From an uncultured bacterium (GTDB lineage Bacteria > Abyssobacteria > SURF-5): a stretch of DNA of 64,000 nucleotides. The stretch spans positions 20,555 through 84,554 of the forward strand of contig CAYVQZ010000002.1 in the NCBI GenBank assembly GCA_964453435.1, in the 5' to 3' direction. Both the position numbers and the translations under genes were made by a program. The notes under the pieces are model-generated. The model saw only the letters and a list, made by a program, of their open reading frames with translations, was not told the DNA's origin and searched no databases. Positions 20,626 through 47,921 of this stretch are shown one piece after another; the stretch's first letter is position 1, and each line of letters begins with the position of its first letter.

Positions 20626-22458
20626 TCATTCAATGTAGCCAAGAGCCTTCAATTGATTCGAGAGCTCGTCGGTAAGTTCCCTTCGAATTGCGGGATGCCG
20701 ATTCATATTCTTTCGAAAATCTTCTGCCATCCCCCTGTGTTTCTCCAAAATGTCCGGCTCCTGGTTGCTCAGATTCAGGATTTCCCGTGGATCGGACGCA
20801 ATGTTATAGAGCATTTCCTTATTCCGTTCCGTGAGGTTTATATATTTATAATCTTGCGTACGGATTGTATACATGTGTCCCATGGGTTCCGCGAGCGCAT
20901 TTTCCGAAAAACTGATAATGGTCCGGTTTGTGTCAGCAGCCTCATCCAAGAGGTCTATGAACGGCCGCGCCCGCAAATGCGCGGGAACATGAACGCCGGC
21001 CCATGTCAAAATGCTGGGCATGAGGTCCGTCAGCGAAACGGGTGAGCGAACCCTTGCGCCGGCGGAGAGCGATGGGCCCGTTAGTATGAGCGGAACCCGC
21101 ACCAGTTCGTCATACAGGGAATTTCCATGGCACAAAAGCTCGTGCTCGTAGAATCCTTCGCCGTGGTCGGAGGTTAATATGACCAGCGTGTTCTTTCGGC
21201 AATTTCCATCATCAATGGCGCGGAATAGCTCATTCAGTTTCGAGTCGACTTTCTCAATCCTTTCAATATATGCGGTCCGCAGACTGTCCAGCATTGAGTC
21301 GTCCACGGGCTGTCGAAATACTTCGGTTCCCCCGAGGTCAACAAAATAGTCGTGCACCTCATACGTGTGAATGAAAAGGAAGAACTCGCGTCGCGGGTCG
21401 TGTCTCTCGATAAATCTCGTGCCGTTTTCAATGGGATCGCCGATTAGCGCGTCCTCGAGAGGAGCGCTTGTGAAGGGGTGCTTGAACATGTGAAAACCTC
21501 GGTCGAAACCATAATTCGGGCTTATATAGCCGCCCCCCGTAAATGCAACGGTGTAATAGCCGTCGCCACGGAGTAGTTCAGCCATTGTGGGCACTTCGGA
21601 ACCTAAGGCCAGGACGGTCATATTATGGGTCGGATTCACGCCGTGTTCCGAGGGGGTCAGTCCGGTGAGCATGCTCATATGTGACGGGACTGTCCAGGGA
21701 GATGTCGAATATGCGCGCTCGAACAGCAGGCCGCCTCTCGCCATGTAATCGATTGACGACGAAACACCCAGCGATGCTCCATAGCAATCCAGGAAATCAG
21801 GTCGAAGAGTGTCGATAGATATGAGCACTATATTTCTGTTCGTTGCCTTCTTGACCGCGGACAGGGCGACCGGGTAACCAGTACTGATTCCTGTTCCGGT
21901 GAGAGCTATGGCAAGAAGGACAAGCACGCGGTGTAGGAATTTTGGGTTGAGCGCGCGGCGCATCGACGTAAGGGACGCATGGCGTATTTCGGGACGAAAC
22001 GTCATGAACAGCAGAAAGACGAACAGTGCGGGGGGAATGTTCATGAGTAAAGCGGAGAGGTATGCGTGAAACGCTTCGTTTATGACAACATGCCGTTCGA
22101 GCGCCGGTTGAGTCCACCAGATGAGGGCGGGCAGACACAGCGCGTGCAGCCGTCTCAACCGGGCGTCGTCCTCATGAACTTGTAACAAGTCAATTAGAAC
22201 GTGTCGGAGAAACCATATGAGGCTGGTGAAGAAGCAGGCGACTGCCATCCAGAGCAGCGCCATCCAAATCGCTTTTTCACCGCTGCTCATATACGATTGC
22301 TGAAAATGAGACCGCAACAAAACAGCCGGCGCAGTCGCAGACGCGAGTATCGCCATGGCGGCTCGACCGTTCACTCGCCATTTTTTCGAGTCAGTCGGTG
22401 GCAAAGTCTTTTCTCCTCCTAAGCGACCCTGCTCCTGTTCACAGACTCTGTGCCCCAC
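20626..22458 (-). CDS. membrane-anchored alkaline-phosphatase-superfamily 'sulfatase-like' hydrolase/transferase (Thr at formylglycine position)
   Basis: 610 aa with N-terminal TM helices and a sulfatase-fold domain (VLISIDTLRPDFLDCYG...YSTSPWTVPSHMSMLTG...TSDHGE). The FGly motif C/S-x-P-x-R is replaced by T-V-P-S-H. The C-terminus ...LKALGYIE is shared with the paralog at 32117-34336. Confidence 0.7.
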   Translation of the reverse strand: MGHRVCEQEQGRLGGEKTLPPTDSKKWRVNGRAAMAILASATAPAVLLRSHFQQSYMSSGEKAIWMALLWMAVACFFTSLIWFLRHVLIDLLQVHEDDARLRRLHALCLPALIWWTQPALERHVVINEAFHAYLSALLMNIPPALFVFLLFMTFRPEIRHASLTSMRRALNPKFLHRVLVLLAIALTGTGISTGYPVALSAVKKATNRNIVLISIDTLRPDFLDCYGASLGVSSSIDYMARGGLLFERAYSTSPWTVPSHMSMLTGLTPSEHGVNPTHNMTVLALGSEVPTMAELLRGDGYYTVAFTGGGYISPNYGFDRGFHMFKHPFTSAPLEDALIGDPIENGTRFIERHDPRREFFLFIHTYEVHDYFVDLGGTEVFRQPVDDSMLDSLRTAYIERIEKVDSKLNELFRAIDDGNCRKNTLVILTSDHGEGFYEHELLCHGNSLYDELVRVPLILTGPSLSAGARVRSPVSLTDLMPSILTWAGVHVPAHLRARPFIDLLDEAADTNRTIISFSENALAEPMGHMYTIRTQDYKYINLTERNKEMLYNIASDPREILNLSNQEPDILEKHRGMAEDFRKNMNRHPAIRRELTDELSNQLKALGYIE

Positions 22459-32116: not shown

Positions 32117-34336
32117 TTGAGGCCGAAGATATGTAAAAGGCTGTTGCAGCGCAGGGGTTTTCTGATGGAGCAGACCAAGAGGGTCGTTGGCACAACCTTT
32201 CTTCGTTCTCTGGTATTGGGGTCGACAACCGCGATTGTCTATTTCGCTTTCGAGTTCTTTTTCGTCACTCTTGCAGGCGCTCATATCCGCATCGAGTACA
32301 TGCTTCTTGCTTTTGGAGCTTACCTGGGAATCGGCCTGGTTCTCGGGACCGTTATCGGGTTGGGAGTCGGCTGGCGGACAGACCGGAAAACCAGTGGAGA
32401 GGTGTCGATTTCACTGTCATTTTATCACATCTTCGGCTTCCTTGCTCTGTTTGGCTTCTATCTATTCTTCCAGCATCCCCTGGTGAGCATGCGTCTTACG
32501 TTTCTGCAGAAATCCGCCGCAAGTTTTCTCACCGCGGTTTTTTTATTTGCGCTGGCATGGTGGTTGGCAAAAAAGCCGATTCCGCGGAAAATGCCGTTCC
32601 GGGCCACATGTGCTTCATATGGGGTCGGCATCACCGTTGTTTGCGAATTGGTTGCCGGCGGAAGATATCTGAACGAAGAATATTTGCCCCTCTTTTTCGG
32701 CTCGCAATCGATTCTGATAAACATGTTCGTGCTTTGCGCCGCCGCCGCCATTTTCTTTATCGGAAACATGTATGCCACTGGTCGCATTACGCCTGCCGGC
32801 GGAAAGGATATGGGAGCCGCTCTCATACCTGCAAGCGTTGCGTTGGTCTTCCTTGTGACAACTGCATATCATCCTCTGGAGAAATATGAGATGCGGATTC
32901 GGCCAGTCAAGAGAGAGGCGGCTCCAACGGAGCGGCCGAATGTGATTCTAATCTCAATTGACACAATTCGCCGCGACCATCTTTCGGTGTATGGATATGA
33001 GCGGGAGACTTCCCCAAACCTGGATGCCTTCGCCACCGACGCGGAAATCTATGAGAATGCTATCTCCAACTCCTGCTGGACGCTGCCCTCCCATGCGTCC
33101 ATGCTGACCGGACTTCACACGAGCGCGCATGGCGCCCACGTGGTAACCGATGCTTTCGAAGGGCTGAGCAAGGCCGATTCCAGCCGGATACCCAGCTTTG
33201 TCGGCGCCGCCCCCTTACATCCCGAATTCGTTACCCTGACGGAAATTCTGAGAGAAAACGGATATGCCACCGGCGCCATTGTCGGAAATTGCACGTATCT
33301 GTACAGGGCATTCGGATTGAATCAGGGATTTGATTACTACAACGACCTCGAAGGCATGCGAATAAAGTTTCCACCGGTATTCGAACCGTTTCGGGTCAGG
33401 TTCTTCACCGAATTTCTTTCTCACCGTTTCAAATGGTATCGAGATGCAGAGGAGGTCAATGAAATCGTATTTGCTTGGATTCACGCTAATCGGCGGTGGC
33501 CGTTTTTTCTTTTCCTGAATTATAATGATCCTCATAGCCCTTACAGCGCGCCGCCGCCATACAACCGTCTCTTCCCCGGAAAAATCTCGAGTCGCGCTTT
33601 GAATGAGTCGGAAATCGTTCGGGCGTTGCGCGCGATGGAGAGAGAGCTCACAAGAGAGGAGAGAGAGCATTTTCTCTCACAGTACGACGGCGAGATTAAC
33701 TATATGGACCATCATCTTGGCCGTCTTTTCAGTTACCTCAAGGAGACGAATATTTATGAAAATTCGCTAATCATTGTGGTCGGCGACCATGGCGAGGCGT
33801 TTGGCGAGCATCTGGCGCTCGGGCACAGGCATAGTCTCTATGAGCCTGAAGTGAGAATTCCCCTCCTGGTAAAACATCCCGAAGCGGCCAGCAAAGGGCG
33901 GAGAGTTGAAGCCGCGCAACCAATAGATATTTTGCCGACAGCGCTTCATATAGTCGGTGTGCCGCTGCCGGCAGGTCTCGACGGCCGCTCGCTGGGGAGT
34001 GCGGAGGCCGATCAAACACTGCCGATGAGCGAGTATTACGTCTTTCAAGATGGTGTTGCGATGTCGCGGGCACGAGTCAACAGATGTATAAGAACCATTT
34101 ACGACGGCAGGTATAAATATATATGGAATTCCGATGCGCCGGACGAGTTGTATGACCTGAAGGCCGACCCTGAGGAAAAAAATAACCTGGCGACGCAGTT
34201 GCCCGACATTGCAGAAACGTGGAGGACTAATCTGGAAGAGCGTCTGGGCCCGCCGCGGTTTCGACCGCAACAACGAACAGGCGTGGCGGATAAAGAGGCT
34301 CTGGACCGGTTGAAGGCCGTCGGGTACATCGAATAG
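32117..34336 (+). CDS. membrane-anchored alkaline-phosphatase-superfamily 'sulfatase-like' hydrolase/transferase, paralog of 20626-22458
   Basis: 739 aa with an N-terminal multi-TM region, VILISIDTIRRDHLSVYG, NSCWTLPSHASMLTG (T-L-P-S-H in place of C-x-P-x-R), VGDHGEAFGEH and the C-terminus LKAVGYIE. The likely start is ATG 32165 (MEQTKRVVG). Confidence 0.7.
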   Translation: MRPKICKRLLQRRGFLMEQTKRVVGTTFLRSLVLGSTTAIVYFAFEFFFVTLAGAHIRIEYMLLAFGAYLGIGLVLGTVIGLGVGWRTDRKTSGEVSISLSFYHIFGFLALFGFYLFFQHPLVSMRLTFLQKSAASFLTAVFLFALAWWLAKKPIPRKMPFRATCASYGVGITVVCELVAGGRYLNEEYLPLFFGSQSILINMFVLCAAAAIFFIGNMYATGRITPAGGKDMGAALIPASVALVFLVTTAYHPLEKYEMRIRPVKREAAPTERPNVILISIDTIRRDHLSVYGYERETSPNLDAFATDAEIYENAISNSCWTLPSHASMLTGLHTSAHGAHVVTDAFEGLSKADSSRIPSFVGAAPLHPEFVTLTEILRENGYATGAIVGNCTYLYRAFGLNQGFDYYNDLEGMRIKFPPVFEPFRVRFFTEFLSHRFKWYRDAEEVNEIVFAWIHANRRWPFFLFLNYNDPHSPYSAPPPYNRLFPGKISSRALNESEIVRALRAMERELTREEREHFLSQYDGEINYMDHHLGRLFSYLKETNIYENSLIIVVGDHGEAFGEHLALGHRHSLYEPEVRIPLLVKHPEAASKGRRVEAAQPIDILPTALHIVGVPLPAGLDGRSLGSAEADQTLPMSEYYVFQDGVAMSRARVNRCIRTIYDGRYKYIWNSDAPDELYDLKADPEEKNNLATQLPDIAETWRTNLEERLGPPRFRPQQRTGVADKEALDRLKAVGYIE

Positions 34337-35137: not shown

Positions 35138-36592
35138 ATGCGCAGATTATCCGTTCTGTTGATTTTCACATCGTGTATCCTGCTGCTTTTCTCCACATCC
35201 CCGGCGCAGACGAAATTCGTTTCCGTTATCACGATAAACGATGACATCATTAACCCGGTTGCCGCCGAGTATATCTCTCAGGCCATCCGCGACGCGAAGC
35301 AGAACGGTGCGGAATGCCTCATCCTCCAACTTGACACGCCGGGCGGGCTGCTCACCTCGACTCGTAAAATCATCAAGGAACTGCTGAATTCCGATGTGCC
35401 GGTGGTTGTCTATGTCGCCCCGAGCGGCGCGCGCGCGGCTTCGGCGGGCATGTTCATAACGCTTGCGGCAAACATCGCCGCGATGGCGCCCTCGACCAAT
35501 ATCGGGGCCGCTCACCCGGTCGATCTCGGCGGCGAGGGCGGAGAATCGTGGCGCGAAGCGATCAAAGGTCTCGAGGAAAAGATGAAGGAGATTGAGCAGC
35601 AGCAAAAGCGGAGGCGTCCGGCGGAAGAGGCCGAAGAAGACAAAGAGGGGACCGCCCCCGAAAAGGAGACCGGGGAAAGCGAGGAAGAGGAATCGTCTAC
35701 CGGTTCGACAATGGGTGACAAGGTGTTAAAGGATACGATAGCGTGGACCCGCGGTATCGCGCGCCTGCGGGGCCGAAACGAGGAATGGGCGGTCGAGGCG
35801 GTCACCAGGAGCGTCTCGATAACCGAGACGGAAGCGCTCGAGAAAAACGTCATTGACTTCATAAGCAAGGATATCGAAGAACTGCTCGAGCAGATAGACG
35901 GGACAGAGGTGACATTGCCCGATGGGCCGGTGACCCTGCGCACCGGCGAGGCTCGCATCGAATATCACGAAATGGATATGCGCCAGCGCATCCTGAACGC
36001 GATCTCGCATCCGAATATCGCGTATATCCTGATGATGCTGGGTTTCTTTGGCCTGCTCTTCGAGGTCACCCATCCCGGCATAGGCTTTCCCGGCATCGCG
36101 GGCGCCATCTGCCTCATCCTCGCCTTTTACTCCTTCCAGGCGCTGCCGGTCGATTACGCGGGAGTCGCGCTCATTGCCCTCGCCATTGTCCTCTTTATCG
36201 CGGAGGCGAAGGTGGCCAGTTACGGGTTGCTGACCGTGGGCGGACTCGTGTGCATGACGCTGGGCTCGATGATGCTGATCGATACGCCGTATGAATTTCT
36301 GAGGGTCTCGAACACGGTGATTTTCCCCGTCGTATTCACGACCGCCGCCCTTGTGGTGTTTCTCGTCACGCTCGTGGTGCGGGCGCACTCCCGCAAGAGC
36401 ATTACCGGTTTGGATGGCCTCGTCGGGGTTGTCGGAACGGCGGAAACGGACATATCGCCGGAAGGCAAAATCTTCATCCACGGCGAACTCTGGAATGCCC
36501 GCAGTGCGGATTCGATTCGGAAGGGAGAGAAAGTAAGGGTGGTTGCGGCCGACGGCATGATGCTGACTGTCGAAAGCGTTTCACAGGAGTGA
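35138..36592 (+). CDS. NfeD-like membrane-bound serine protease (ClpP-fold) with C-terminal OB-fold domain
   Basis: 484 aa with a signal/TM N-terminus and a ClpP-class protease domain (LQLDTPGGL...GARAASAGMFITLAANIAAMAP) interrupted by an acidic/Lys-rich insert of about 45 aa (EKMKEIEQQQKRRRPAEEAEEDKEG...ESEEEESS). It also has multi-TM helices and a C-terminal OB-fold (IFIHGELWNARSAD...VRVV). Confidence 0.8.
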   Translation: MRRLSVLLIFTSCILLLFSTSPAQTKFVSVITINDDIINPVAAEYISQAIRDAKQNGAECLILQLDTPGGLLTSTRKIIKELLNSDVPVVVYVAPSGARAASAGMFITLAANIAAMAPSTNIGAAHPVDLGGEGGESWREAIKGLEEKMKEIEQQQKRRRPAEEAEEDKEGTAPEKETGESEEEESSTGSTMGDKVLKDTIAWTRGIARLRGRNEEWAVEAVTRSVSITETEALEKNVIDFISKDIEELLEQIDGTEVTLPDGPVTLRTGEARIEYHEMDMRQRILNAISHPNIAYILMMLGFFGLLFEVTHPGIGFPGIAGAICLILAFYSFQALPVDYAGVALIALAIVLFIAEAKVASYGLLTVGGLVCMTLGSMMLIDTPYEFLRVSNTVIFPVVFTTAALVVFLVTLVVRAHSRKSITGLDGLVGVVGTAETDISPEGKIFIHGELWNARSADSIRKGEKVRVVAADGMMLTVESVSQE

Positions 36593-36651
36593 CACTCGAA
36601 GGATAGAGACCGAATGGCGGACACAGGAACTGACCAAGGAGGATTTAGAAA

Positions 36652-37434
36652 ATGCAAGTGCCGGTAATCGTCGTGCTCATTATCGTCCTGTACTTCATCA
36701 GTTGTGTTCGCGTGCTGAACGAATACGAGCGGGGAGTCGTGTTTAGGCTCGGGCGGGTTCTGTCGGGACCGAAGGGGCCGGGTCTGATATTGGTATTCTG
36801 GCCGATCGACCGCATGGTGCGTGTCAGCCTGCGGCTCATCGCGCTGGATGTACCCCCGCAGGACATCATCACGCGCGACAACGTCTCGGTGAAAGTGAAT
36901 GCGGTGGCGTACTTCAGGGTCATGGAGCCGAGCAAGTCCGTCATCGAGGTGGAGAATTTCCTGTTTGCGACTTCACAGATGGCCCAGACCACGTTGCGAA
37001 GCGTGCTCGGCAGGTCCGATCTCGACGAGCTTTTATCCGAACGCGACAAGATCAATCAAGAGCTTCAGGACATTCTTGACCGGCAAACCGACCCGTGGGG
37101 TATCAAGGTTTCGAACGTCGAAGTCAAACACGTGGACCTGCCGCAGGAAATGCAGCGCGCCATCGCGCGCCAGGCGGTCGCCGAACGAGAACGGCGAGCC
37201 AAGGTAATCAACGCCGAGGGCGAGTTCCAGGCGGCGGCCCGGCTTGTTGACGCCGCCAAGATGATGGAACACCATCCCATGGCGCTGCAGATGCGGTTCC
37301 TTCAGACACTGGTGGAAGTCGCATCGGAGAAGAGTTCGACGATGGTGCTTCCGCTTCCGCTCGACCTGTTCCGCCCATTCTTTGAGGCCAACCTGAGGAA
37401 AGAGCAACAGCAACAGGAGCCAAAGCAAGAGTAG
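36652..37434 (+). CDS. SPFH/band 7 (stomatin-like) protein
   Basis: 260 aa: [14 protein letters not shown]...GPGL...[34 protein letters not shown] is the canonical stomatin/PHB domain. It is the known operon partner of NfeD. Confidence 0.85.
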
Positions 37435-37866: not shown

Positions 37867-39480
37867 ATGGCGGTTGAACTGAACATGATGATTCTCGGCC
37901 ACGTGATTCAAATGAAGGCGGAGAGTCAGCCCGACAAAAAATGCCTGATATTCGAGCGCAACACAAATCCCGACGTTCACTTGACCTATGCCGACCTGTG
38001 GAGAAGCTCGAATAAGGTGGCCGTCATGCTGAAGGAGCAGGGTGTTGAAAAGGGTGACAAGTTCGCGATAATGATGCGCAATCACCCCGAGTTCCTGTAT
38101 GCGATGACCGCGGGAACGCTGACCGGCGCCGTGTCGGTTCCGATCGACCCGCGCACAAAAGGGCAGAAACTCAAGTATTACCTGAATAATTCCGAGGCGA
38201 AAGTCGTTTTGATAACTTCCGACCTTCTGCCCGTAATCGAGGGAATTATGGGGGATGTGCCCATGGTGAAGGCGATATACGTGGCCTATATGCCGTGGGA
38301 GCAGAAGGGCGACAAGTATCCCTCGCTCAACGAAGTCCTGGCGGGTCCCGAGCACTACGTCGGAAACCAACTGGAGGACCCGACCCACCCGATGGAGATA
38401 ATCTACACATCCGGCACCACGGGTGACCCGAAGGGTGTGGTTCTCCCGAACAACCGCATCGCGTCGTACGGGCTTATCGGTCAGATGGTCTGGCAGTATC
38501 AGGAGGACGATATCCTGTATACCGGGCTCTCTCTCACGCATGGCAACGCGCAGGCCGTGACAGTCATGCCGGGACTCCTGCTCGAACGGCTCGTCGTTCT
38601 GAGCGAGCGCTTCACAAAGAGCCGCCTGTGGGACATCTGCCGGAAGTTCGGATGCACGACTTTCTCATTGCTCGGGGGCATGGCAACCGCGATATACAGC
38701 GAGCCGGAAAAGCCGAACGATGGCGATAACCCGGTGCGCTTCGTCATAAGCGCGGGGATGCCGCGGGCCATATGGGAGCCGTTCGAAAAGCGGTTTAACG
38801 TAAAGATACTCGAGTGGTACGCGGCAGTCGAGGGCGGTTTTGCATACAAGCCGATTGGCCAGGGACCGGTCGGCTCGTTCGGGAAGCCGTTGGCCGGAAT
38901 GCTGGAAATGAAGATTGTCGACGAAAATGACAACGAATGCCCGCCGAATGTGATCGGGGAAATCGTTTCGCGGCCCGCGACCGGTGAGAAGGCCGATGTC
39001 GAATACTACAAGAATCCCGATGCCTCCGCAAAGAAGGTTCGCGGGGGATGGCTGCGCAGCGGCGATATGGGACACGTCGATGAAGACGGGTGGTTCTTCT
39101 TCGATTACCGCAAGGGCGGCGGTATCCGACACAACGGCGACTTCGTTCATCCCGACTATGTCGAGAAGGTGGTGGCGGAACATCCGCACGTCACGGAGGT
39201 GGCCGTCTACGGCGTGCCCGCCGCAAGCGGGGCGCCGGGGGAAAAGGATGTCGTGGCGGCCATCGTCCCGGCCGACAGAGCGAAGCTTGACCTTGCTTCC
39301 GTGTACCAGAAGTGTCGCAGGGAATTGGAATCGAATTTCGTGCCCTCCTATATCCAGGTGCTCGATGAGATTCCGAAGACCATCTCCGAAAAACCGCAGG
39401 AACGATTCCTGATTGAGCTGTTCGAAAAAGATAAGAAGAGCGTTTTTACCGAGGAACAAGTGAAACAGGCGGCCAACTGA
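37867..39480 (+). CDS. AMP-dependent acyl-CoA synthetase/ligase
   Basis: 537 aa with the AMP-binding motif IIYTSGTTGDPKGVVL, the hinge and YRTGD-equivalent (WLRSGDMG), and a conserved C-terminal Lys region. Confidence 0.8.
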   Translation: MAVELNMMILGHVIQMKAESQPDKKCLIFERNTNPDVHLTYADLWRSSNKVAVMLKEQGVEKGDKFAIMMRNHPEFLYAMTAGTLTGAVSVPIDPRTKGQKLKYYLNNSEAKVVLITSDLLPVIEGIMGDVPMVKAIYVAYMPWEQKGDKYPSLNEVLAGPEHYVGNQLEDPTHPMEIIYTSGTTGDPKGVVLPNNRIASYGLIGQMVWQYQEDDILYTGLSLTHGNAQAVTVMPGLLLERLVVLSERFTKSRLWDICRKFGCTTFSLLGGMATAIYSEPEKPNDGDNPVRFVISAGMPRAIWEPFEKRFNVKILEWYAAVEGGFAYKPIGQGPVGSFGKPLAGMLEMKIVDENDNECPPNVIGEIVSRPATGEKADVEYYKNPDASAKKVRGGWLRSGDMGHVDEDGWFFFDYRKGGGIRHNGDFVHPDYVEKVVAEHPHVTEVAVYGVPAASGAPGEKDVVAAIVPADRAKLDLASVYQKCRRELESNFVPSYIQVLDEIPKTISEKPQERFLIELFEKDKKSVFTEEQVKQAAN

Positions 39481-39532
39481 AGAGGCGCCGCTTCACGTGG
39501 TCTCGGGGTGAACCGTTAGCAACGAAGGAAGG

Positions 39533-40825
39533 GTGAGCGCTCCCTCTTTGGGAGTGCGCGATAAAATGAAAGCAGCCAGTTCGCGGAAGCGTCTCGAGAT
39601 TTCGAAAGAACTCTGGAAGCTGGTTCCAAAGTATTTCGCCGAGGCCCACGCTGCGAAAGCCGAAGGCAAACTCGTCGGCTGGATGCCGCCCATGAACGGC
39701 GCGATCGAGGTGTTTCGCGCGATGGATATCATGCCGGTCATGCCGGAGAACTGGTCTCCCATTTGCGCGGCCACCGGGCTGGCGCCCGAGTGCATGGAGG
39801 CGGCGGAGCGAATGGGGTACTCACGCGACCTGTGCGGCTACCTGAGAAACGCGCTCGGCTACATTCACGAAGGAATGAAAAGGGCCGACCAGCCGCTTGG
39901 CGGGTTGCCGTCGCCCGACCTAATCATAGCGTTCGGCGGCGGGTGTATACCCGCGATGAAAATTTTCCAGGCCTTTGCCGAACACTTCCGCGTGCCGACC
40001 TATATCGCCGACGGCCCGCAGATTCCCCCCGAAGAGATAAACGACGAGACCATCTCGTTTGCCGCCGACCGGTTCCGCGACTTCATACGGTGGCTCGAGG
40101 AGCAAACCGGCAAGAAGCTGGATATGGACCGGCTGAGGGAAGTCGTGCGCCTTTCAGACCGAGCCTGCGAATTGTGGGACGAGATCATGGATTATCGGCG
40201 CTGTGTGCCGACCCCGTTCAGCGCGGCCGAAATCGGGGTGATGTTCGTCATGGTGGTTCTCCCGGGCACTCAGGACGCCGTCGATTTTCTCGAAAAATTC
40301 AAGCATGAGGTGCGGGAAAGAGCCGAGAAGGGGATTGGGTGTGTTCCCGAGGAACGGTTCCGCCTGTTTTGGGATAATATCCCGCTGTGGTACAACATGG
40401 GTATTTTCAATTACTTTGAAAAGTGGGGCGCGGTCGTCGTCGCAGAAACGTATTCCGCCGCATGGTCTATCCGGCTCGATTGGGAGAATCCCATCGAAAG
40501 CCTTGCCCGGAAAAGTATACTTTCATTTCCGCTTGTCTCCAATGTGTCCCTGAAAAAGCGTATCGATATGGTGCTCGACGCCTGCCGAAAATACAAAATT
40601 GACGGCGCCATCCTTCACTCCAACAAAAGCTGCAAGCCCATATCGCTCGGCCAAATGGACATTCGGCGCGTGCTCATGGATGAGTTGGAGGTTCCGAGCG
40701 TGATGTTCGAAGCCGACCATATGGATGTGCGAAACTGGAGCGACGCCCAGGTGAAAAATCGGCTCGATGCGTTCATGGACATGCTCGAGCAACGGAAGTT
40801 CGGCTCTCCGGCCCCCGCCCCCTGA
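39533..40825 (+). CDS. 2-hydroxyacyl-CoA dehydratase family protein (HgdB/BcrB/BadE D-component-like), orphan subunit
   Basis: 430 aa with the HGD-D-like motif DLCGYLRNALGYI and conserved Cys positions (GGGCIP, GIGCVPEE). No partner subunit or activase lies within the window. The likely start is ATG 39566. Confidence 0.6.
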   Translation: MSAPSLGVRDKMKAASSRKRLEISKELWKLVPKYFAEAHAAKAEGKLVGWMPPMNGAIEVFRAMDIMPVMPENWSPICAATGLAPECMEAAERMGYSRDLCGYLRNALGYIHEGMKRADQPLGGLPSPDLIIAFGGGCIPAMKIFQAFAEHFRVPTYIADGPQIPPEEINDETISFAADRFRDFIRWLEEQTGKKLDMDRLREVVRLSDRACELWDEIMDYRRCVPTPFSAAEIGVMFVMVVLPGTQDAVDFLEKFKHEVRERAEKGIGCVPEERFRLFWDNIPLWYNMGIFNYFEKWGAVVVAETYSAAWSIRLDWENPIESLARKSILSFPLVSNVSLKKRIDMVLDACRKYKIDGAILHSNKSCKPISLGQMDIRRVLMDELEVPSVMFEADHMDVRNWSDAQVKNRLDAFMDMLEQRKFGSPAPAP

Positions 40826-41975: not shown

Positions 41976-42346
41976 TTTCCGGCAAGAATTTCATTGGCCT
42001 CCCATTTTTTATCCAGCCTGGTGGCGCTGTATGTGGCGCACTCGGAACAAATTCGTAATCGGCCACGTTGTTGTAACGGCAATCACGAAACCGTATTTCG
42101 GGAAAGGCATTATTTTCCGAAGCCAAGTATATGCTAAGCCAAGTCTTATCAAATAGTTACGCGAGTCAGAACGCAGTCAATCGGCTTGCGCGTCATGGCA
42201 CACAACTTGCCCTTTGCTTATCATACAAAAGAGCATTCGCGTTTGTTGATGGAGCGCTTGTTGGGCCGGGCAGACGTTATACCGCAAGCGCCGAGCCGAC
42301 GACCGCGATTTCGGAAAACAAATCGCGGCGCGGGCACAGGAAGGTG

Positions 42347-44350
42347 ATGAACATGGGAAGAAATCTGTTAATCCTGCTCATGCTGGTCTTTTTCAATGCG
42401 GCCGCGTTCGCTGAGACAGCGACATTCCATGTGGCGGAAACAGACCTGGAAGACACCTCCGCAGGGTTGGGCCTCTATGGGAGCTCGAATGATTTCGACA
42501 ACCCGAACGGCTGGCACTTCTTTGGTTATTCGCGTTACACGTATGCTTATTACAATGCGTATTGGCGGTGGGCGCTTACCATTCCGAAGGGCTCAATAAT
42601 AAACCATGCCTATGTGCGCATTCGTTCCGATTACACGAATTCGGGAAATCTCGATGCCGCCTTCCAGGCGCTTGTCGCGGACAAGAGATGGGAGACCGGT
42701 AAGGGATTCAACCGCGAAAGCTATCCCAACGGAACGGCCCTGAAAAATATCCCGCTGCAAGGGGCTCCCGTCGTTTGGGCCATAACGGACTCATGGAACG
42801 AGGGCGGCTGGCACGTCAGCCCGGACATAGCAGACCTCGTGCAGGAGCGTCTGTGGAACGTCGGTTATGCTCCGGACGGCGAAGAAGGAAAATATTTCGG
42901 CCTCGTGCTGAAGCATGTTTCCGGCTATGCGTACAGGACCGGCACGCAACAGCCCGACGATAATTCTTTTGTGGCTGAACTCTATGTGGACTGGACTCCG
43001 AATTTTGACGGAATGCCGGAATATGAGAGCATTGTTTTTCACGTGGGCGACTCCGACATCGAGGACACATACGCAGAAGGTCGGGTGGGCGGAACCAACG
43101 GCTTCGCCGACATAAACGGTCATCAATATGTCGGATATTCTGCGCTTACCGGAGCGATTTACGATTCTTATTGGCGATGGCCCTTGACCGTCCCGAAGGG
43201 GGCCACGATAGTCGAGGCGCACGTGCGGCTGCGTTCCAACTACACCACCTCAGGTTTGGTCGACACCGCTCTTGAGGCATTGTCGCCCGATGACAAATGG
43301 GAAGAGAGCGGTGGCTTCGGCGCCGATAATTATCCGGATGGAATGTCCCTGACCGACATTCCCCGGCAGGGATTGCCGGTGGTCTGGGACTTGATGCCCG
43401 ACTGGACCGTTGGAGATTGGTATCAGAGTCCGGACATTGCAAACCTTGTGCAGGAGCGTATCGATAACGGGGATTACGACCCCTTCGATATCAATTATCG
43501 GCATTTCGGGCTGGTATTGTCCTACATCGCGGGTTCCGGCTATCGGGTGGCGACACAGGAACCCCATGACGACACTCTCACCGCACACCTGTTCGTGAAA
43601 TGGATACCGCCCGACGACGGATGCGAAGAGGTCGAAGTCTGCGGCGATGGGATAGACAACGATTGCGACGGGGAAATTGACGAGTTCTGTAACACATGTC
43701 CAATTGCCGAAGCCGGAGGAGACCAGTCGGTATACCGGGGAGACATCGTGTTGCTCGACGGCAGCGGCAGTTCGGATGCAGACGGCGACCAGCTTGCCTA
43801 TATGTGGTCGCTTGTCAGCAGGCCCGAAGGCAGCTCGGCGGCGCTTTCCGGCTCGCTGACGGCGACGCCCGCATTCGCAGCGGATGCGCCCGGCGACTAC
43901 ATAATCGAACTCGTTGTCGATGACGGCGCGTGTTCGAGTGAGCCTGATACCTGCATCGTCACGGCTTTCATCCCGGAATATCTCTGTCCCATGGGTATGG
44001 GATATTGGAAAAACCATTCCGACGAATGGCCGGTTCAGTCGATGTGGTTGGGAGCGGTGAACTATACCAGGGATGAATTGCTTGCGATCCTGAAGAGGCC
44101 CGTGAAGGGCGACGCCAGCATGCTGCTTGCTCGCCAGCTCATTTCAGCGAAACTTAACATCGCGAACGGTTCCGACCCGCGTCCGGTTGAAGAAACTGTC
44201 ATCGTGGCGGACCAATTGCTCAGTGGGTTCTCTGGCCCACTGCCTTACAAAGTGAAACCGTCCTCCGGTACCGGCCGCTCTATGCTCGAGGCCGCGAAAA
44301 TTCTCGATGCATACAACGGGGGTGAGCTGACGCCGGAGTGCGAGCCGTAA
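42347..44350 (+). CDS. large secreted protein: two tandem ~200-aa repeats of an unknown domain + PKD-like (K319L-type) domain + C-terminal domain
   Basis: The start was moved to ATG 42347 (RBS AGGAAGG; signal peptide MNMGRNLLILLMLVFFNAAAFA). Repeat 1 (FHVAETDLEDTS...ELYVDWTP) and repeat 2 (FHVGDSDIEDTY...HLFVKWIP) share YWRW(A/P)LT(I/V)PKG, SPDIA(D/N)LVQER and HFGLVLS. A Cys-rich linker (CGDGIDNDCDGEIDEFC) follows, then LLDGSGSSDADGDQLAYMWSLV (PKD-like). Confidence 0.7.
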   Translation: MNMGRNLLILLMLVFFNAAAFAETATFHVAETDLEDTSAGLGLYGSSNDFDNPNGWHFFGYSRYTYAYYNAYWRWALTIPKGSIINHAYVRIRSDYTNSGNLDAAFQALVADKRWETGKGFNRESYPNGTALKNIPLQGAPVVWAITDSWNEGGWHVSPDIADLVQERLWNVGYAPDGEEGKYFGLVLKHVSGYAYRTGTQQPDDNSFVAELYVDWTPNFDGMPEYESIVFHVGDSDIEDTYAEGRVGGTNGFADINGHQYVGYSALTGAIYDSYWRWPLTVPKGATIVEAHVRLRSNYTTSGLVDTALEALSPDDKWEESGGFGADNYPDGMSLTDIPRQGLPVVWDLMPDWTVGDWYQSPDIANLVQERIDNGDYDPFDINYRHFGLVLSYIAGSGYRVATQEPHDDTLTAHLFVKWIPPDDGCEEVEVCGDGIDNDCDGEIDEFCNTCPIAEAGGDQSVYRGDIVLLDGSGSSDADGDQLAYMWSLVSRPEGSSAALSGSLTATPAFAADAPGDYIIELVVDDGACSSEPDTCIVTAFIPEYLCPMGMGYWKNHSDEWPVQSMWLGAVNYTRDELLAILKRPVKGDASMLLARQLISAKLNIANGSDPRPVEETVIVADQLLSGFSGPLPYKVKPSSGTGRSMLEAAKILDAYNGGELTPECEP

Positions 44351-44844: not shown

Positions 44845-45387
44845 ATGAGAAGCTTGTTGTGGGTAGTGACGGTGTTAATTGCATTCGGGCTGGTCAGTTC
44901 ATCGAGTTCCGCCGAAAACGCCGAGCACAATTACGTTGGCGTGAAGGGCTGCAAAATGTGTCATATGGCGCCGGCCAAAGGCGCTCAGTATAAATCATGG
45001 GAAGAATCCAAGCACGCGAAAGCCTATGAGACCCTCGGCACAGAGGAAGCCAAGAAAATTGCCGCCGAACAAGGGATAGAGGACCCGCAGAAGAGCGCGG
45101 AATGTCTGAAGTGCCACGTGACCGGATATGGCGCTGACGCGTCGCGGTTCGAACCCACGTACACGATGGAGGAAGGTGTGGGCTGCGAAAGCTGTCACGG
45201 CGCGGGCAAAGACTACAAGAACATCAAAATAATGAAGGATGTGGAACAGGCGAAAGCCAACGGGCTCATCCTGCCGACTGAGGAGGTCTGCAGGAAATGT
45301 CACAACGAAGAGAGCCCGACCTATAAAGAGTTCGATTTTGAGGCAAGATACAAGGAAATAGCCCACCCGAGGCCCGAAAAGGAGTAG
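44845..45387 (+). CDS. tetraheme c-type cytochrome (secreted)
   Basis: Four CxxCH motifs (CKMCH, CLKCH, CESCH, CRKCH) in about 150 aa after a signal peptide (MRSLLWVVTVLIAFGLVSSSSSA). The start was moved to ATG 44845, which has the RBS AAAGGAAGG (track ORF 44752). Confidence 0.75.
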   Translation: MRSLLWVVTVLIAFGLVSSSSSAENAEHNYVGVKGCKMCHMAPAKGAQYKSWEESKHAKAYETLGTEEAKKIAAEQGIEDPQKSAECLKCHVTGYGADASRFEPTYTMEEGVGCESCHGAGKDYKNIKIMKDVEQAKANGLILPTEEVCRKCHNEESPTYKEFDFEARYKEIAHPRPEKE

Positions 45388-45486
45388 GGGAAAGCTTTTC
45401 AAAACCTTGTTGTCACACATCTCCCATGTCTTAATTGGGGGGAATTCCGACGGAGTTCCCCCCATCTGTTTTGCGGTTGGTGACGC

Positions 45487-45530
45487 GGGTTATCGGGAGG
45501 AGCCATGCCGCATGGTGTCCCCAATAAACC
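45487..45530 (+). repeat. dispersed intergenic repeat, family 2, copy 4 (GGGTTATCGGG...CCATGCCGCATGGTGTCCCCAATAAACC)
   Basis: Shares the CATGGTGTCCCCAATAA(A)CC core with the copies at 8940, 37517 and 40832. It lies between the cytochrome c and EncFtn-like genes. Confidence 0.5.
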
Positions 45531-45751
45531 CTGGCCGTGAGCGCCGATTTAACAAACCCGTCTTGCGCACTTCTTTCCCGCAATGTTATGATTCTATTGG
45601 TCTCTGGTGAAGTCTCTTTGGTTTGTACGAGCATGGAAAAGGGGCAGACATCCGCATTTTTTGATTTTCGGATTCGCTCCGTTGACGATTCCTTTGGACA
45701 ACTTGACGCCGGTTTGACCACTGGTGAAACCGAAAGCAAGGAGGACTGGCT

Positions 45752-46045
45752 ATGGCAGGGGCATATCATGAGCCGCACGAGAGACTCTCGAAAAGCACGC
45801 AGGATTTACACCGCGCCTGGATGTCGCTGAAAGAGGAAATCGAAGCAATGGACTGGTATCAGCAGCGCATCGATGCCACCGACAACAAAGAACTGAAGGA
45901 CATTCTGGCACATAACCGGGATGAAGAAAAAGAGCACGCAGCGATGCTCATGGAGTGGATACGCAGGAACGACGCCGAATTCGCGAAGGAGATGAAGGAT
46001 TATCTGTTCACCGAAAAACCGGTAACCGAAATCGAGGAATCGTAG
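45752..46045 (+). CDS. EncFtn-like (encapsulated-ferritin family) ferritin-like protein, without recognisable cargo-loading peptide
   Basis: 97 aa. The segment EEIEAMDWYQQRIDATDNKELKDILAHNRDEEKEHAAMLMEWIRRNDAEFAKEMKDYLFTEKP matches, by recall, the EncFtn ferroxidase signature (E/Y/E-x-x-H spacing 29/36/59/62; ILAHNRDEEKEHAAM). RBS AAGGAGG lies 8 nt upstream. The protein ends ...TEIEES with no GSL-type targeting tail, and no encapsulin gene is adjacent. Confidence 0.55.
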   Translation: MAGAYHEPHERLSKSTQDLHRAWMSLKEEIEAMDWYQQRIDATDNKELKDILAHNRDEEKEHAAMLMEWIRRNDAEFAKEMKDYLFTEKPVTEIEES

Positions 46046-46066
46046 CGAATCCGCCTCGCCTGTCAC

Positions 46067-47017
46067 ATGATTCATTTTCATCAGCCGCTGTCTACAGTGC
46101 CGCATTTTCACGCACGCGAGGAGGGTGAAGGTCAGCATTTTCATCGCGTGGTCGAACGCAGGCGACTTATCCTGGCAATGGCAGTGACGGGCGGCGCGAT
46201 GGTTGTGGAGGTGGTTGGCGGCCTGCTCACCGGCAGTCTCGCCCTCCTGAGCGACGCCGGCCACATGCTTACTCACTTCTTTGCGTTGCTGGTGAGCTTC
46301 ATCGCCATCAAGCTGGCGGCCCTGCCCACTCGCCCCAACCGAAGCTTTGGTTTGTACAGGGTCGAGGTGCTTGCGGCGCTGTTCAACGGTATCACCCTGT
46401 TATTCATCATTGCCTTCATTTTCCATGAAGCGGTCAACCGGCTCCTGAATCCCGCGCCGATCAAAGTATTGCCCATGCTCATGGTGGCCGTTGTCGGATT
46501 GGTCGTCAACATGGTTTCGGCGATTATCTTGCTCGACGTGGGCAAGACCGACTTGAACGTGCGCAGTGCGTTCCTGCACATGCTCGGAGATACGGCATCG
46601 TCGGGCGGCATCGTTATCGGTTCCGTGGTCATCTACTTCACGGGCTGGTATGCGATCGACCCCATGCTGAGCATGCTCATTGCCCTTGTAATCCTTGTTT
46701 GGAGCTGGAATCTTCTCAGGGATTCGGTTAACATTTTGCTCGAAACCGCTCCCCGGCATATTGACATCGATGATGTGATCAAAGCGATTCGGGTAAGTGC
46801 GCCGGAGGTCGCCGACGTGCACGACGTGCACATTTGGGAGATTACCTCGCAGATGTATTCCATGACCGCTCACATTGTCTTTCGGGACGACTGTCATGTC
46901 AGCGAATGCGCGGCCGTGTTCGAGCGTCTCCGTCGGCCATTGCTCGAGCAGTTTCGGATATCCCATGTCAATTTCAGTCCCGAGTACGACCGTTCGTCGC
47001 AAGGCCGGGGAGCTTGA
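46067..47017 (+). CDS. cation diffusion facilitator (CDF) family divalent-metal efflux transporter
   Basis: 316 aa with an N-terminal His-rich segment (HFHQP...HFHAREEGEGQHFH), six TM helices with metal-site motifs LLSDAGHML and HMLGDTASS, and a C-terminal cytoplasmic domain typical of CzcD/FieF. Confidence 0.85.
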   Translation: MIHFHQPLSTVPHFHAREEGEGQHFHRVVERRRLILAMAVTGGAMVVEVVGGLLTGSLALLSDAGHMLTHFFALLVSFIAIKLAALPTRPNRSFGLYRVEVLAALFNGITLLFIIAFIFHEAVNRLLNPAPIKVLPMLMVAVVGLVVNMVSAIILLDVGKTDLNVRSAFLHMLGDTASSGGIVIGSVVIYFTGWYAIDPMLSMLIALVILVWSWNLLRDSVNILLETAPRHIDIDDVIKAIRVSAPEVADVHDVHIWEITSQMYSMTAHIVFRDDCHVSECAAVFERLRRPLLEQFRISHVNFSPEYDRSSQGRGA

Positions 47018-47167
47018 GGAGACCCGAAATTGTCCGGAACATAGATTGAAGATACTGTTGTTTGGTCTCTTTCCAAAACACAAAGAGGCGGATATAATAG
47101 GAAGTGGCTGGTGGAGGGCGCCGGGTCGTCAGATTGCGCGCACAAAAGCGAGAAGGGGACCATCCGC

Positions 47168-47407
47168 ATGGCTATATCCGCGTATGTGTTTGTCGAATGC
47201 GCTCAGGGTAAGGCCCTGGATGTGAGCCATAAATTGTTGCAGATTGACGGTGTGCGGACATGTCATGCCGTAACGGGTCCGGTGGACGTGATTGCGTTCG
47301 TTGAAGCGGCGGATATCAACGAACTCGGAAGAGTGGTTGTCGATAAAATACAAGGCACTGACGGCGTTTTCCGCACCTCCACAAACATTGTGACCGGCGG
47401 GAGTTAA
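47168..47407 (+). CDS. stand-alone Lrp/AsnC-type RAM (ligand-binding) domain protein
   Basis: About 79 aa from ATG 47168 (MAISAYVFVECAQGKALDVSHKLLQIDGVRTCHAVTGPVDVIAFVEAADINELGRVVVDKIQGTDGVFRTST). The beta-alpha-beta-beta-alpha-beta pattern is that of the AsnC C-terminal domain, and there is no HTH. The track ORF begins at 47111. Confidence 0.5.
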   Translation: MAISAYVFVECAQGKALDVSHKLLQIDGVRTCHAVTGPVDVIAFVEAADINELGRVVVDKIQGTDGVFRTSTNIVTGGS

Positions 47408-47477: not shown

Positions 47478-47921
47478 ATGAAGATGTGTCCCGCCTGCCA
47501 TGCCGTGTTTGACGGAAGAAAATGGAACAGTCCGTCCCACGTTTCCCGCGAAAACCGGGATAGAGCCGAACAGGCGCTCTGCACCGCCTGTAAACGGATA
47601 CGGGATAAAGTGACGCTGGGGACCGTGTATCTCGACGGCGAAATAATCGTTTCGCGGACTGAGGAAATACTCAGGATGATTCGGCGCGAAGAAGAAATCG
47701 AGCACAGCAGGAATTACTGCTCTCGCATCCTTGATATTCGCACGAACGGCAAGAAAATGACGATACGGACGGTCAATTCAATTTTGGCAATCCATATAGC
47801 AAAACAGTTCAAAAAGGCATTCAAGGGCAGGATGGAGATATTCAAGGACACTCCCGGCCACAGGCCCCGAAACAAGCAAAGCGAGGGCACGGTGGCCGTG
47901 AAATGGATTCAGAGTCCCTGA
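47478..47921 (+). CDS. hypothetical zinc-ribbon protein (Cys4; possibly NMD3-N-like)
   Basis: 147 aa beginning MKMCPACHAVFDG...CTACKRIRD, then a mixed basic domain. No confident family assignment can be made from sequence alone. Confidence 0.35.
   Translation: MKMCPACHAVFDGRKWNSPSHVSRENRDRAEQALCTACKRIRDKVTLGTVYLDGEIIVSRTEEILRMIRREEEIEHSRNYCSRILDIRTNGKKMTIRTVNSILAIHIAKQFKKAFKGRMEIFKDTPGHRPRNKQSEGTVAVKWIQSP

Follow-up and report, generated by a model that had tools for sequence, protein, structure and literature searches.

A short EncFtn-type protein without a targeting peptide encoded next to a predicted zinc/cobalt-type CDF exporter in a Ca. Abyssubacteria-like lineage

INTRODUCTION

The encapsulated ferritin (EncFtn) of R. 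rubrum (Rru_A0973, PDB 5DA5) is a true encapsulin cargo (FLP-TP) of 140 aa, with a disordered linker, the peptide SLGIGSLK and an adjoining encapsulin gene, and the roles of its ferroxidase-site residues have been described (PMC5012862). Targeting peptides of this kind follow the consensus L/F-x-V/I-x-x-L/I, of which SLGIGSLK is an example, and are placed after a disordered linker (PMC11202242). According to a review on iron detoxification, Zn(II) is likewise bound at the ferroxidase centre of EncFtn proteins and inhibits it (PMC7762939).

Short EncFtn proteins that have no targeting peptide were called 'Non-EncFtn' by He et al. in 2016 (PMC5012862) and 's-FLP' in a 2024 review, according to which they could in principle still be encapsulated (PMC11202242). 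The prototype of the class is NE0167 of Nitrosomonas europaea (PDB 3K6C), which crystallised as a decamer according to a review and with which the first EncFtn structure was solved by molecular replacement. In the literature searched, we found no functional characterisation of the short class and no experiments beyond the 3K6C structure, itself unpublished. Such shell-less proteins are abundant in genomes, and the question of their encapsulation is still raised in reviews. Here, we describe an s-FLP gene that lies between the genes of a tetraheme cytochrome c and a CDF metal exporter in a 64-kb window (the whole stretch of DNA analysed, 64,000 nt).

RESULTS

Layout of the locus

The cytochrome, EncFtn and CDF genes are adjacent on one strand (+), and everything that the initial annotation had described for these three genes was found in place. 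The features of the region are as follows.

44845..45387, + strand: tetraheme cytochrome c gene; 180 aa, c554 family, signal-like N-terminus, four CxxCH
45436..45474, + strand: intrinsic-terminator-like hairpin 3′ of the cytochrome gene; 13 pairs, 8 of them G-C, then a T-run
45563..45592, + strand: putative promoter of the EncFtn-CDF unit; TTGCGC, 18-nt spacer, TATGAT; read by eye
45738-45745, + strand: EncFtn RBS AAGGAGGA, 5′ of the EncFtn start
45752..46045, + strand: EncFtn-like gene, s-FLP / Non-EncFtn class; 97 aa, without targeting peptide
46067..47017, + strand: CDF divalent-metal exporter gene; 316 aa, predicted ZitB/CzcD/ZnT type, His-rich N-terminus
47070-47098: promoter-like site between the CDF and AsnC-domain genes
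47168..47407, + strand: gene of a stand-alone Lrp/AsnC ligand-binding (RAM) domain; 79 aa, no HTH; Pfam AsnC_trans_reg, E=2.8e-15
47478..47921, + strand: gene of a BCAM0308-family-like small Cys-rich protein; 147 aa; NF040826, E=4.1e-25

A gap of 365 bp separates the cytochrome gene from EncFtn, and the CDF gene starts only 21 nt past the EncFtn stop codon; judged by this last spacing alone, EncFtn and CDF would be co-transcribed. The site at 45563..45592, which we regard as their putative promoter, has the extended −10 element TGTTATGAT (45584-45592), and three related loci (L001, L081 and L084) carry, by eye, either TGTTATGAT or TGTTATTAT ahead of their EncFtn unit. A consensus promoter scan passed over this site, since its −35 hexamer agrees with the consensus at 3 of 6 bases only. 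A riboswitch or structured leader 5′ of EncFtn (e.g. NiCo/czcD) was considered and rejected: Rfam at gathering thresholds returned nothing over the whole 64-kb window, its E-value mode gave only a chance CRISPR-DR match (E=8) over 45380-46100, and in its computed folding the 161-nt EncFtn leader does not stand out from shuffled sequences (z=−0.54). Inspection of the upstream regions by eye showed no palindrome resembling a Fur box.

The 97-aa EncFtn-like protein

Membership of the EncFtn family, for which an HMM search had been suggested as the check, was confirmed by two profiles, PF22277 of Pfam (E=4.7e-39, 132.5 bits, cutoff 27) and TIGR04535 of NCBIfam (131 bits, cutoff 125), and on these matches the protein is a member of the encapsulated-ferritin-type ferroxidase family. 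The ferroxidase residues, likewise reported as intact in the initial annotation, are all present: the centre ligands E29, E59 and H62 and the nearby Y36 align to R. rubrum Glu32, Glu62, His65 and Tyr39. In the complete alignment E28, E29, E31, W35 and Y36 correspond to R. rubrum E31, E32, E34, W38 and Y39, and H54, E58, E59, E61 and H62 to H57, E61, E62, E64 and H65. The 97-aa protein, which is 58% identical to R. rubrum EncFtn over the folded domain, keeps 10 of the 10 residues of its ferroxidase centre (E32, E62, H65, Y39), entry site (E31, E34, W38) and outer site (H57, E61, E64). The ILAHNRDEEKEHAAM block, described before as near-verbatim, is identical letter for letter in the 97-aa protein, NE0167 and R. 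rubrum EncFtn.

In contrast to the R. rubrum protein, the window protein has no disordered linker, no SLGIGSLK peptide and no adjoining encapsulin gene. It ends ...LFTEKPVTEIEES, 11 residues after the LFT motif, and its tail (TEIEES) contains neither a GSL-type nor a hydrophobic L/F-x-V/I-x-x-L/I targeting motif. The TIGR04535 match covers profile positions 1-92 of 114 and leaves the C-terminal tail of the profile unmatched; thus, the protein is without an FLP-TP-type tail, and the proposed absence of a cargo-loading peptide stands. It also has no signal peptide, unlike the periplasmic cytochrome.

A length of 97 aa and an EncFtn domain only, with no long disordered C-terminus, fit the s-FLP / Non-EncFtn class (∼95-100 aa). 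The best solved match is NE0167 (E=2.4e-35; 65% identity over 89 residues; 95 versus 97 aa), which has the same two-helix EncFtn domain, the same block and no targeting peptide, and this 65% identity to 3K6C suggests a two-helix monomer in an annular decamer. The motif LFTEKP agrees with part of the s-FLP consensus LFTD(E/N)KPIAHE, but is followed by VTEIEES in place of IAHE: NE0167, like most proteobacterial members, has ...LFTDKPIAH(E/K/D) as its C-terminus, whereas the 97-aa protein and its clade end ...LFTEKPVTEIEES. This acidic tail sub-type is common to ∼70 of the best 120 homologue clusters, in many phyla. Scoring covered more than 8000 homologues, and among the 120 best nearly all are 95-101 aa long; a species-representative genome collection contained at least 597 matching stretches. 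Identity of the 97-aa protein to its relatives is 74-99%, with the catalytic residues all kept.

By its sequence, the 97-aa protein belongs to a described and very common short tail-less EncFtn class. A naturally shell-less EncFtn had been called unusual, and this view has to be given up, since the class is already described and has a structure (3K6C), and 163 of 166 related loci are tail-less. The locus adds nothing new on the nature of short EncFtn proteins as such.

Targeting tail and shell gene

The initial annotation saw no encapsulin gene next to EncFtn, and we found none in the entire window, where Pfam scans of ∼46 ORFs gave no encapsulin family and a family-1 encapsulin HMM (built from three family-1 sequences and run without filters) reached a best E of 0.52 on 853 stop-to-stop segments. 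Among the 166 related loci, from 163 of which the targeting tail is missing, a GSL-type tail occurs only in L025 and L097, and the same two loci are the only ones with an adjacent family-1 encapsulin; as a positive control, phmmer with the T. maritima encapsulin recovers both shells. Tail and adjacent shell gene therefore coincide exactly across the related loci (2/2 cases). In 77 loci the flanks extend for 3 kb or more on either side; 75 of these loci are without a shell, and all 75 are tail-less. That tail and shell are jointly present or absent in 166 loci speaks for a role of s-FLPs outside encapsulins.

One candidate for a cryptic shell, a 274-aa gene overlapping the EncFtn stop codon in L167, was rejected; its product carries a signal peptide, matches DUF2271 weakly and was not hit by the encapsulin HMM. 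The part of the supplement of the 2021 encapsulin census that was searched holds no entries for Abyssubacteria, Lindowbacteria or Poribacteria, to which we give little weight.

Type and metal of the CDF exporter

The exporter matches TIGR01297 (E=2.9e-82, 276 bits, cutoff 82), contains the Pfam domains Cation_efflux and ZT_dimer and has six His in its first 26 residues. Its best equivalog-type match in NCBIfam is the ZitB model with 248 bits, yet below the cutoff of 408, and its best solved relatives are ZnT3, ZnT1 and ZnT8 (∼1e-31), compared with 2e-15 for the FieF structure. The full-length CDF architecture and the His-rich N-terminus are shared with ZitB/CzcD/ZnT (SLC30), whereas FieF/YiiP and MamB/MamM have the same superfamily and fold with far weaker similarity. 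Scores against the Fe-type models were 61 bits for FieF (cutoff 447), 64 for MamM and 58 for MamB (both cutoff 350), and because these are far under the cutoffs, there is no sequence support for an iron-specific exporter. We thus predict a CDF of Zn/Co/Cd type, not of Fe type. The earlier label, FieF/CzcD-like with a His-rich N-terminus, can be kept for the CDF family, the His-rich segment and the CzcD type, and its FieF part (61 bits versus 248 for ZitB) is to be dropped.

A tetrahedral HD-HD site, with HxxxD in both TM2 and TM5, is the mark of Zn-type CDFs. The predicted transport site of the window CDF is HH-HD, formed by H66 and H70 in TM2 and H171 and D175 in TM5, so that TM2 reads H66-x3-H70 (HxxxH) where ZitB/CzcD/ZnT have HxxxD. 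The HxxxH motif was considered as a mark of the EncFtn-linked clade and rejected: it is present in 115 of the best 120 homologues, and L173 and L175, more distant CDF homologues that also have HxxxH, are without an EncFtn neighbour. For a homologue with HxxxH (52% identity), the CDF gene is located inside an OEP-MFP-CDF-RND (czcCBA-like) operon, in line with the Zn/Co/Cd type.

Pairing of EncFtn and CDF across relatives

From the closest clade 7 loci were fetched (L001 and L081-L086, from Ca. Abyssubacteria-like MAGs), and each of them has the EncFtn-CDF pair, which is present in 0 of 159 other loci. In the seven loci the intergenic gap is 12-21 nt and the surrounding contexts differ, i.e. the conservation of the pair is operon-like. 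Outside this clade, s-FLP genes have unrelated neighbours and most are without a transporter neighbour; clustering of neighbours in 80 genome loci gave no family in more than 7 loci that could be a general s-FLP partner. NE0167-type genes had no conserved partner gene in the loci examined, whereas the gene of the 97-aa protein is paired with CDF. A metagenome scan for close relatives yielded, among the matches listed, relatives at ≤70% identity, which served as extra controls.

What is modestly new here is an EncFtn gene in a predicted operon with a zinc/cobalt-type exporter in a Ca. Abyssubacteria-like lineage. The link is limited to one lineage, and a gene order kept by descent, without functional coupling, could account for it.

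The cytochrome and its separation from EncFtn

With the signal-like N-terminal segment MRSLLWVVTVLIAFGLVSSSSSA and four CxxCH motifs (CKMCH, CLKCH, CESCH and CRKCH), the upstream protein is, as proposed before, a secreted four-heme cytochrome. It matches Pfam Cytochrome_C554 (E=5e-21) and shares four CxxCH and a signal peptide with cytochrome c554 (CycA) of Nitrosomonas and its small tetraheme relatives, but scores 64 bits against the N. europaea c554 equivalog model (cutoff 400) and has 180 aa versus 238 model positions, and is a family-level relative only.

In L085 and L086 the EncFtn unit is preceded by an orthologue of the cytochrome (63-67% identity). In both loci G+C-rich hairpins with T-runs are likewise seen by eye 3′ of the cytochrome gene, and a distinct gene of a secreted 255-aa protein stands between cytochrome and EncFtn. 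A remnant of this ∼255-aa gene in the gap of the window was sought and rejected, as tblastn over 45388-45751 gave no match, even with E values up to 10 allowed. The cytochrome gene is probably its own transcription unit.

DISCUSSION

We propose, with a probability of roughly two in three, that the locus encodes a free s-FLP ferroxidase decamer that is co-transcribed with a CDF exporter as a metal and oxidative-stress module. In this proposal, five dimers of the 97-aa protein would most likely come together as a ring-shaped decamer, free in the cytoplasm, and each dimer interface would carry a di-iron ferroxidase centre; both the decamer and its free ferroxidase activity are extrapolated from tail-deleted FLP-TP proteins. 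The decamer would oxidise Fe(II) with O2 or H2O2, storing no mineral and entering no encapsulin shell. EncFtn and CDF would be transcribed together from their own promoter in the Ca. Abyssubacteria-like lineage, and the ZitB/CzcD-type antiporter would export divalent cations from the cytoplasm. As a module, EncFtn would remove reactive Fe(II), and the CDF would remove excess divalent metal, for which Zn, Co, Cd and possibly Fe may be considered. The periplasmic c554-type cytochrome would belong to a neighbouring, separate transcription unit.

Two other histories of the 97-aa protein itself have to be considered. As an orphan cargo, it would enter an encapsulin whose gene lies in another part of the genome, and would do so by way of a non-canonical signal in its short, acidic C-terminus (TEIEES) or together with a tailed EncFtn paralogue with which it co-assembles. 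The shell search spans 64 kb of the genome only, the 2024 review leaves open an undefined binding sequence in the short C-terminus of s-FLPs (PMC11202242), and the NCBIfam name of the family is still 'encapsulin-associated'. Against this, neither the hydrophobic L/F-x-V/I-x-x-L/I pattern nor a GSL feature is present in the tail, tail and adjacent shell match exactly in the 166 loci (2/2), 75 of 77 well-flanked loci are without both, and the searched part of the 2021 census supplement, a weak argument, has no Abyssubacteria entry; we consider loading into a distant shell very unlikely. That the gene is instead a decaying, functionless remnant, an FLP-TP gene truncated after shell loss, is hardly credible. 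The ...ITEIE... segment does run slightly past the proteobacterial s-FLP ends and aligns with the start of the R. rubrum linker (ITAIEA), but ∼70 of the 120 top-scoring homologue clusters, which come from many phyla, share the length and the acidic tail type, relatives at 74-99% identity have lost no catalytic residue, and a strong RBS precedes the gene, whose operon partners are conserved.

The role of the neighbours can also be read differently. In the iron/redox triad of the initial annotation, cytochrome, EncFtn and CDF would share a single pathway, the first transferring electrons, the second oxidising iron and the third exporting the metal, as may be suggested by three adjacent genes on the same strand and by the orthologous cytochrome upstream of EncFtn-CDF in L085, L086 and the near-identical L082. 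When the suggested survey of relatives was carried out, the EncFtn-CDF part of this triad held in 7 of 7 closest-clade loci and the cytochrome was found in 3 of 7, being missing at the corresponding position in L001, L081, L083 and L084. Moreover, a strong terminator-like hairpin and 365 bp separate the cytochrome from EncFtn, a different secreted 255-aa protein gene intervenes in L085 and L086, the cytochrome is periplasmic while EncFtn has no signal peptide, and the CDF is predicted to be of Zn/Co/Cd type, not of FieF/MamB type; a single three-gene iron pathway is hence unlikely. Comparably doubtful is the reading that EncFtn is not a catalytic ferroxidase but a metallochaperone, buffer or sensor (Zn/Co/Ni/Fe) of the CDF, the Glu- and His-rich sites of the ring binding the substrate of the exporter. 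The tight operon-like pairing with a heavy-metal-type CDF across the clade, the conserved secondary metal sites on the 97-aa protein and the inhibitory Zn(II) bound by EncFtn ferroxidase centres (PMC7762939) speak for it, whereas the complete di-iron ligand set and the Tyr are strictly conserved, as in catalytically active EncFtns, and the transporter neighbour is missing for most s-FLPs. A further reading, in which the tail-less EncFtn was recruited as a dedicated cytoplasmic partner of the HH-HD CDF and e.g. presents, gates or senses metal, appears improbable; if true, it would give the large s-FLP class its first physiological role, and a ring of the ferritin superfamily would thereby be tied to the efflux of metal through the membrane.

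Returning to the module of a free ferroxidase and an exporter, the conserved s-FLP-CDF operon in one lineage suggests testable links to divalent-metal stress, and if the coupling is functional, it would provide a first physiological handle on the s-FLP class. The conserved order continues in part beyond the CDF gene: an AsnC-domain gene is located 3′ of CDF in L082, L001, L084, L085 and L086, and the BCAM0308-like Cys-rich gene, whose 147-aa product scores 88 bits against NF040826 (cutoff 100) and which may lie outside the EncFtn-CDF module, is syntenic in L082, L001, L084 and L085.

Results

An EncFtn-like protein without a targeting tail

The data describe, as far as sequence can tell, an intact ferroxidase of the encapsulated ferritin (EncFtn) fold which carries no loading signal, lacks a shell gene anywhere in the 64-kb window and is paired with a CDF transporter in its lineage. 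Three genes are concerned:

44845-45387, same strand as the next two genes: secreted-type tetraheme cytochrome, 180 aa, signal-like N-terminus and four CxxCH
45752-46045, same strand as the cytochrome and CDF genes: EncFtn-like protein, 97 aa, with AAGGAGGA just 5′ of the gene; PF22277, TIGR04535
46067-47017, same strand as the EncFtn gene and starting 21 nt downstream: CDF transporter, 316 aa; TIGR01297, Cation_efflux and ZT_dimer

The EncFtn assignment made in the initial annotation held in profile searches (PF22277 EncFtn-like, E = 4.7e-39; TIGR04535, 131 bits, cutoff 125). The TIGR04535 alignment spans only profile positions 1-92 of 114, thus the linker and tail part of this model has no counterpart in the 97-aa protein. 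The closest solved structure, 3K6C, is that of the 95-aa protein NE0167 from Nitrosomonas europaea (E = 2.4e-35, 65% identity over 89 residues), and the next-best are bona fide encapsulin cargos, e.g. R. rubrum EncFtn (58% identity). The ferroxidase residues noticed earlier are retained in alignment as the full R. rubrum set (R. rubrum numbering; roles from PMC5012862): E32, E62, H65 and the accompanying Y39 at the ferroxidase centre; E31, E34 and W38 at the proposed entry site; H57, E61 and E64 at the outer site. The window protein ends in LFTEKPVTEIEES, without a targeting peptide of the hydrophobic or GSL type tabulated in PMC11202242, as had been proposed. It has no signal peptide, also as anticipated, and thus should be cytoplasmic.

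Shell genes

The absence of an adjacent encapsulin gene, noted initially, extends to the whole window: Pfam scans of ∼46 ORFs returned no encapsulin family. A small encapsulin HMM, built from the T. maritima sequence and two encapsulins of related loci, was applied unfiltered to the 853 stop-to-stop segments of the window, and its best match had E = 0.52. The T. maritima query, confirmed against 3DKT (E = 6e-177), was searched with phmmer in 166 related loci, of which 80 came from species genomes, 80 from metagenome contigs and 6 from look-ups; this search serves as a positive control. Family-1 encapsulins were found in exactly two loci, L025 and L097, and only these two have a GSL-tailed EncFtn (…ASIGSLRGGA and …SLGIGSLKGSRR); tail and adjacent shell (L025:9989-11175 and L097:5817-7184) therefore co-occur exactly. 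None of the remaining 164 loci gave a phmmer shell match, and the EncFtn terminates ≤20 residues past the YLF motif in 163 of them. Where at least 3 kb was available on both sides, 75 of 77 loci had no shell.

A known and abundant class

A naturally shell-less EncFtn had been called unusual; this fails, since the 97-aa protein is a member of an already known, abundant class. He et al. 2016 set apart a ‘Non-EncFtn’ group without encapsulin association and used 3K6C as molecular-replacement model (PMC5012862), and a 2024 review names the class ‘s-FLP’ and gives 3K6C as a decamer (PMC11202242). We scored at least 8000 homologue candidates, all significant, and nearly all of the best 120 are 95-101 aa long; matching stretches numbered at least about 600 in the genome scan and at least 600 in the metagenome scan. 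The …ITEIEE… tail of the window protein is common to ∼70 of the 120 best homologue clusters, and a KPIAH-type tail occurs in 13. No functional study of any s-FLP was found in the literature searched.

The EncFtn–CDF pair and the cytochrome

Around s-FLP genes the commonest neighbour family recurs in at most 7 of 80 genome loci, which makes s-FLP genes stand-alone as a rule. In the closest clade (EncFtn at least 74% identical; MAG labels Ca. Abyssobacteria SURF_5, SURF_17, Lindowbacteria and Poribacteria), an orthologous CDF gene lies 12-21 nt after the EncFtn gene in all seven fetched loci (L001 and L081-L086, the near-identical strain L082 included), and it is absent from all other 159 of the 166 loci. 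Genes around the pair vary between several of the seven. A stand-alone AsnC/RAM-domain gene (77-79 aa) lies 3′ of the CDF gene in five and a BCAM0308-like gene in four; the window copy of the former (47168-47407, 79 aa, an Lrp/AsnC ligand-binding protein without DNA-binding domain), kept just downstream of the pair in five relatives, has a promoter-like site at 47070-47098.

The upstream product is indeed a secreted four-heme cytochrome c, matching Cytochrome_C554 (E = 5e-21), but it scores 64 bits against a cutoff of 400 on the Nitrosomonas c554 equivalog model, and is thus a small periplasmic tetraheme cytochrome of this family, not c554 itself. Orthologues (63-67% identity) occur in L085 and L086, and otherwise only in L082 among clade loci. 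A ∼255-aa secreted protein separates cytochrome and EncFtn in L085 and L086, and is present without the cytochrome in L001 and L081. A 13-pair hairpin with T-run lies 3′ of the cytochrome gene (45436-45474), with comparable hairpins, judged by eye, in L085 and L086, and a putative extended -10 motif, TGTTATGAT (45584-45592), is shared with L001, L081 and L084, again 5′ of the EncFtn unit. From this patchy recurrence, the hairpins and the shared motif, we read the cytochrome as a neighbouring, separate transcription unit and EncFtn–CDF as an operon. Of the proposed triad, then, the pair stands and the cytochrome drops out, leaving a probable lineage-specific EncFtn–CDF operon beside a cytochrome that is probably transcribed separately. 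The 5′ leader of the EncFtn unit matched nothing in Rfam and showed no unusual fold.

The ∼255-aa gene (L085:5198-6001, L001:4084-4881, L081:7175-7939 and L086:753-1508) abuts the EncFtn start or lies within ∼60 nt of it. Its product falls in no Pfam family; the one match, 3-keto-disaccharide-hydrolase-like, is weak (E = 0.21). Neither gene nor remnant was found in window 45388-45751.

The CDF transporter

The 316-aa protein (TIGR01297, E = 2.9e-82) has the His-rich N-terminus described initially (six His among the first 26 residues). Of the ‘FieF/CzcD-like’ label only the second half is retained: it resembles ZitB/CzcD/ZnT (ZitB model, 248 bits; ZnT3, ZnT1 and ZnT8 structures, ∼1e-31), and is unlike MamB or FieF (61 bits by model, 2e-15 by structure). 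Its transport site, H66, H70, H171 and D175, is HH-HD instead of the usual Zn-type HD-HD, the TM2 motif SDAGHMLTH having HxxxH where HxxxD is usual. This site is invariant among clade CDFs and common to 115 of the 120 best CDF homologues, across many phyla and down to 46% identity. One such homologue (L173:4001-4942) lies within an OEP-MFP-CDF-RND, czcCBA-like operon; no EncFtn neighbours it or another distant CDF homologue. The ZitB/ZnT likeness and this operon context suggest that the transporter probably exports heavy metals (Zn/Co/Cd-type) and is not dedicated to iron.

Discussion

We suggest that the 97-aa protein would assemble into a free cytoplasmic decamer, which may oxidise Fe(II) and store none, and that its co-expression with a divalent-cation exporter could form a small metal/oxidative-stress module. 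Zn(II) is reported to inhibit EncFtn ferroxidase activity (PMC7762939), and, speculatively, this is one rationale for pairing with a Zn-type exporter.

Other readings are not favoured by the data. The protein might be an orphan cargo whose shell is encoded elsewhere, and the 2024 review leaves open that s-FLPs are still encapsulated (PMC11202242); among our loci shells accompany GSL tails, and the window protein has no such tail. A cytochrome-linked iron triad would agree with the gene order of the window, and is likewise disfavoured, the cytochrome being found in three clade loci and the CDF in seven. Neither a metallochaperone role nor a decaying remnant is favoured; the acidic tail recurs in many homologue clusters, and the ferroxidase set is complete.

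Short EncFtns were also seen in other contexts. At L167:2970-7121 a 74%-identical protein, which shares the KPVTEIEE tail, is encoded in a cluster of a DtxR-type repressor, FeoA, FeoB and EncFtn. Another s-FLP is thereby placed among iron-uptake genes; the cluster precedes a gene for a secreted protein of 274 aa (weak DUF2271 match). In two Acidobacteriota-like contigs (L169:6001-6306 and L171:6001-6300) the gene is flanked by a NUDIX hydrolase gene on one side and a DUF2007 gene on the other, and mraZ with the cell-division (dcw) cluster follows directly; no metal-related genes are nearby.

Elsewhere in the window, 42131-44350 encodes a secreted protein of 739 aa that combines PKD domains with a MopE-like Cys motif; its N-terminal half apparently holds two alike ∼190-aa segments (FHVAETDLEDT... 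and FHVGDSDIEDT...). Adjacent membrane NfeD and SPFH/Band-7 genes lie in that order on one strand at 35138-37434. An AMP-dependent ligase precedes a 2-hydroxyglutaryl-CoA dehydratase D-component-like protein (HGD-D, E = 3e-74) at 37867-40825; no activator or partner subunit for the latter was found among the window ORFs scanned. Two large proteins with sulfatase and SGSH_C domains (20626-22458, minus strand; 32117-34336, plus strand) are encoded amid genes for glycosyltransferase, PMT_2 and MBOAT membrane proteins, and the EncFtn unit of L081 adjoins a similar sulfatase.
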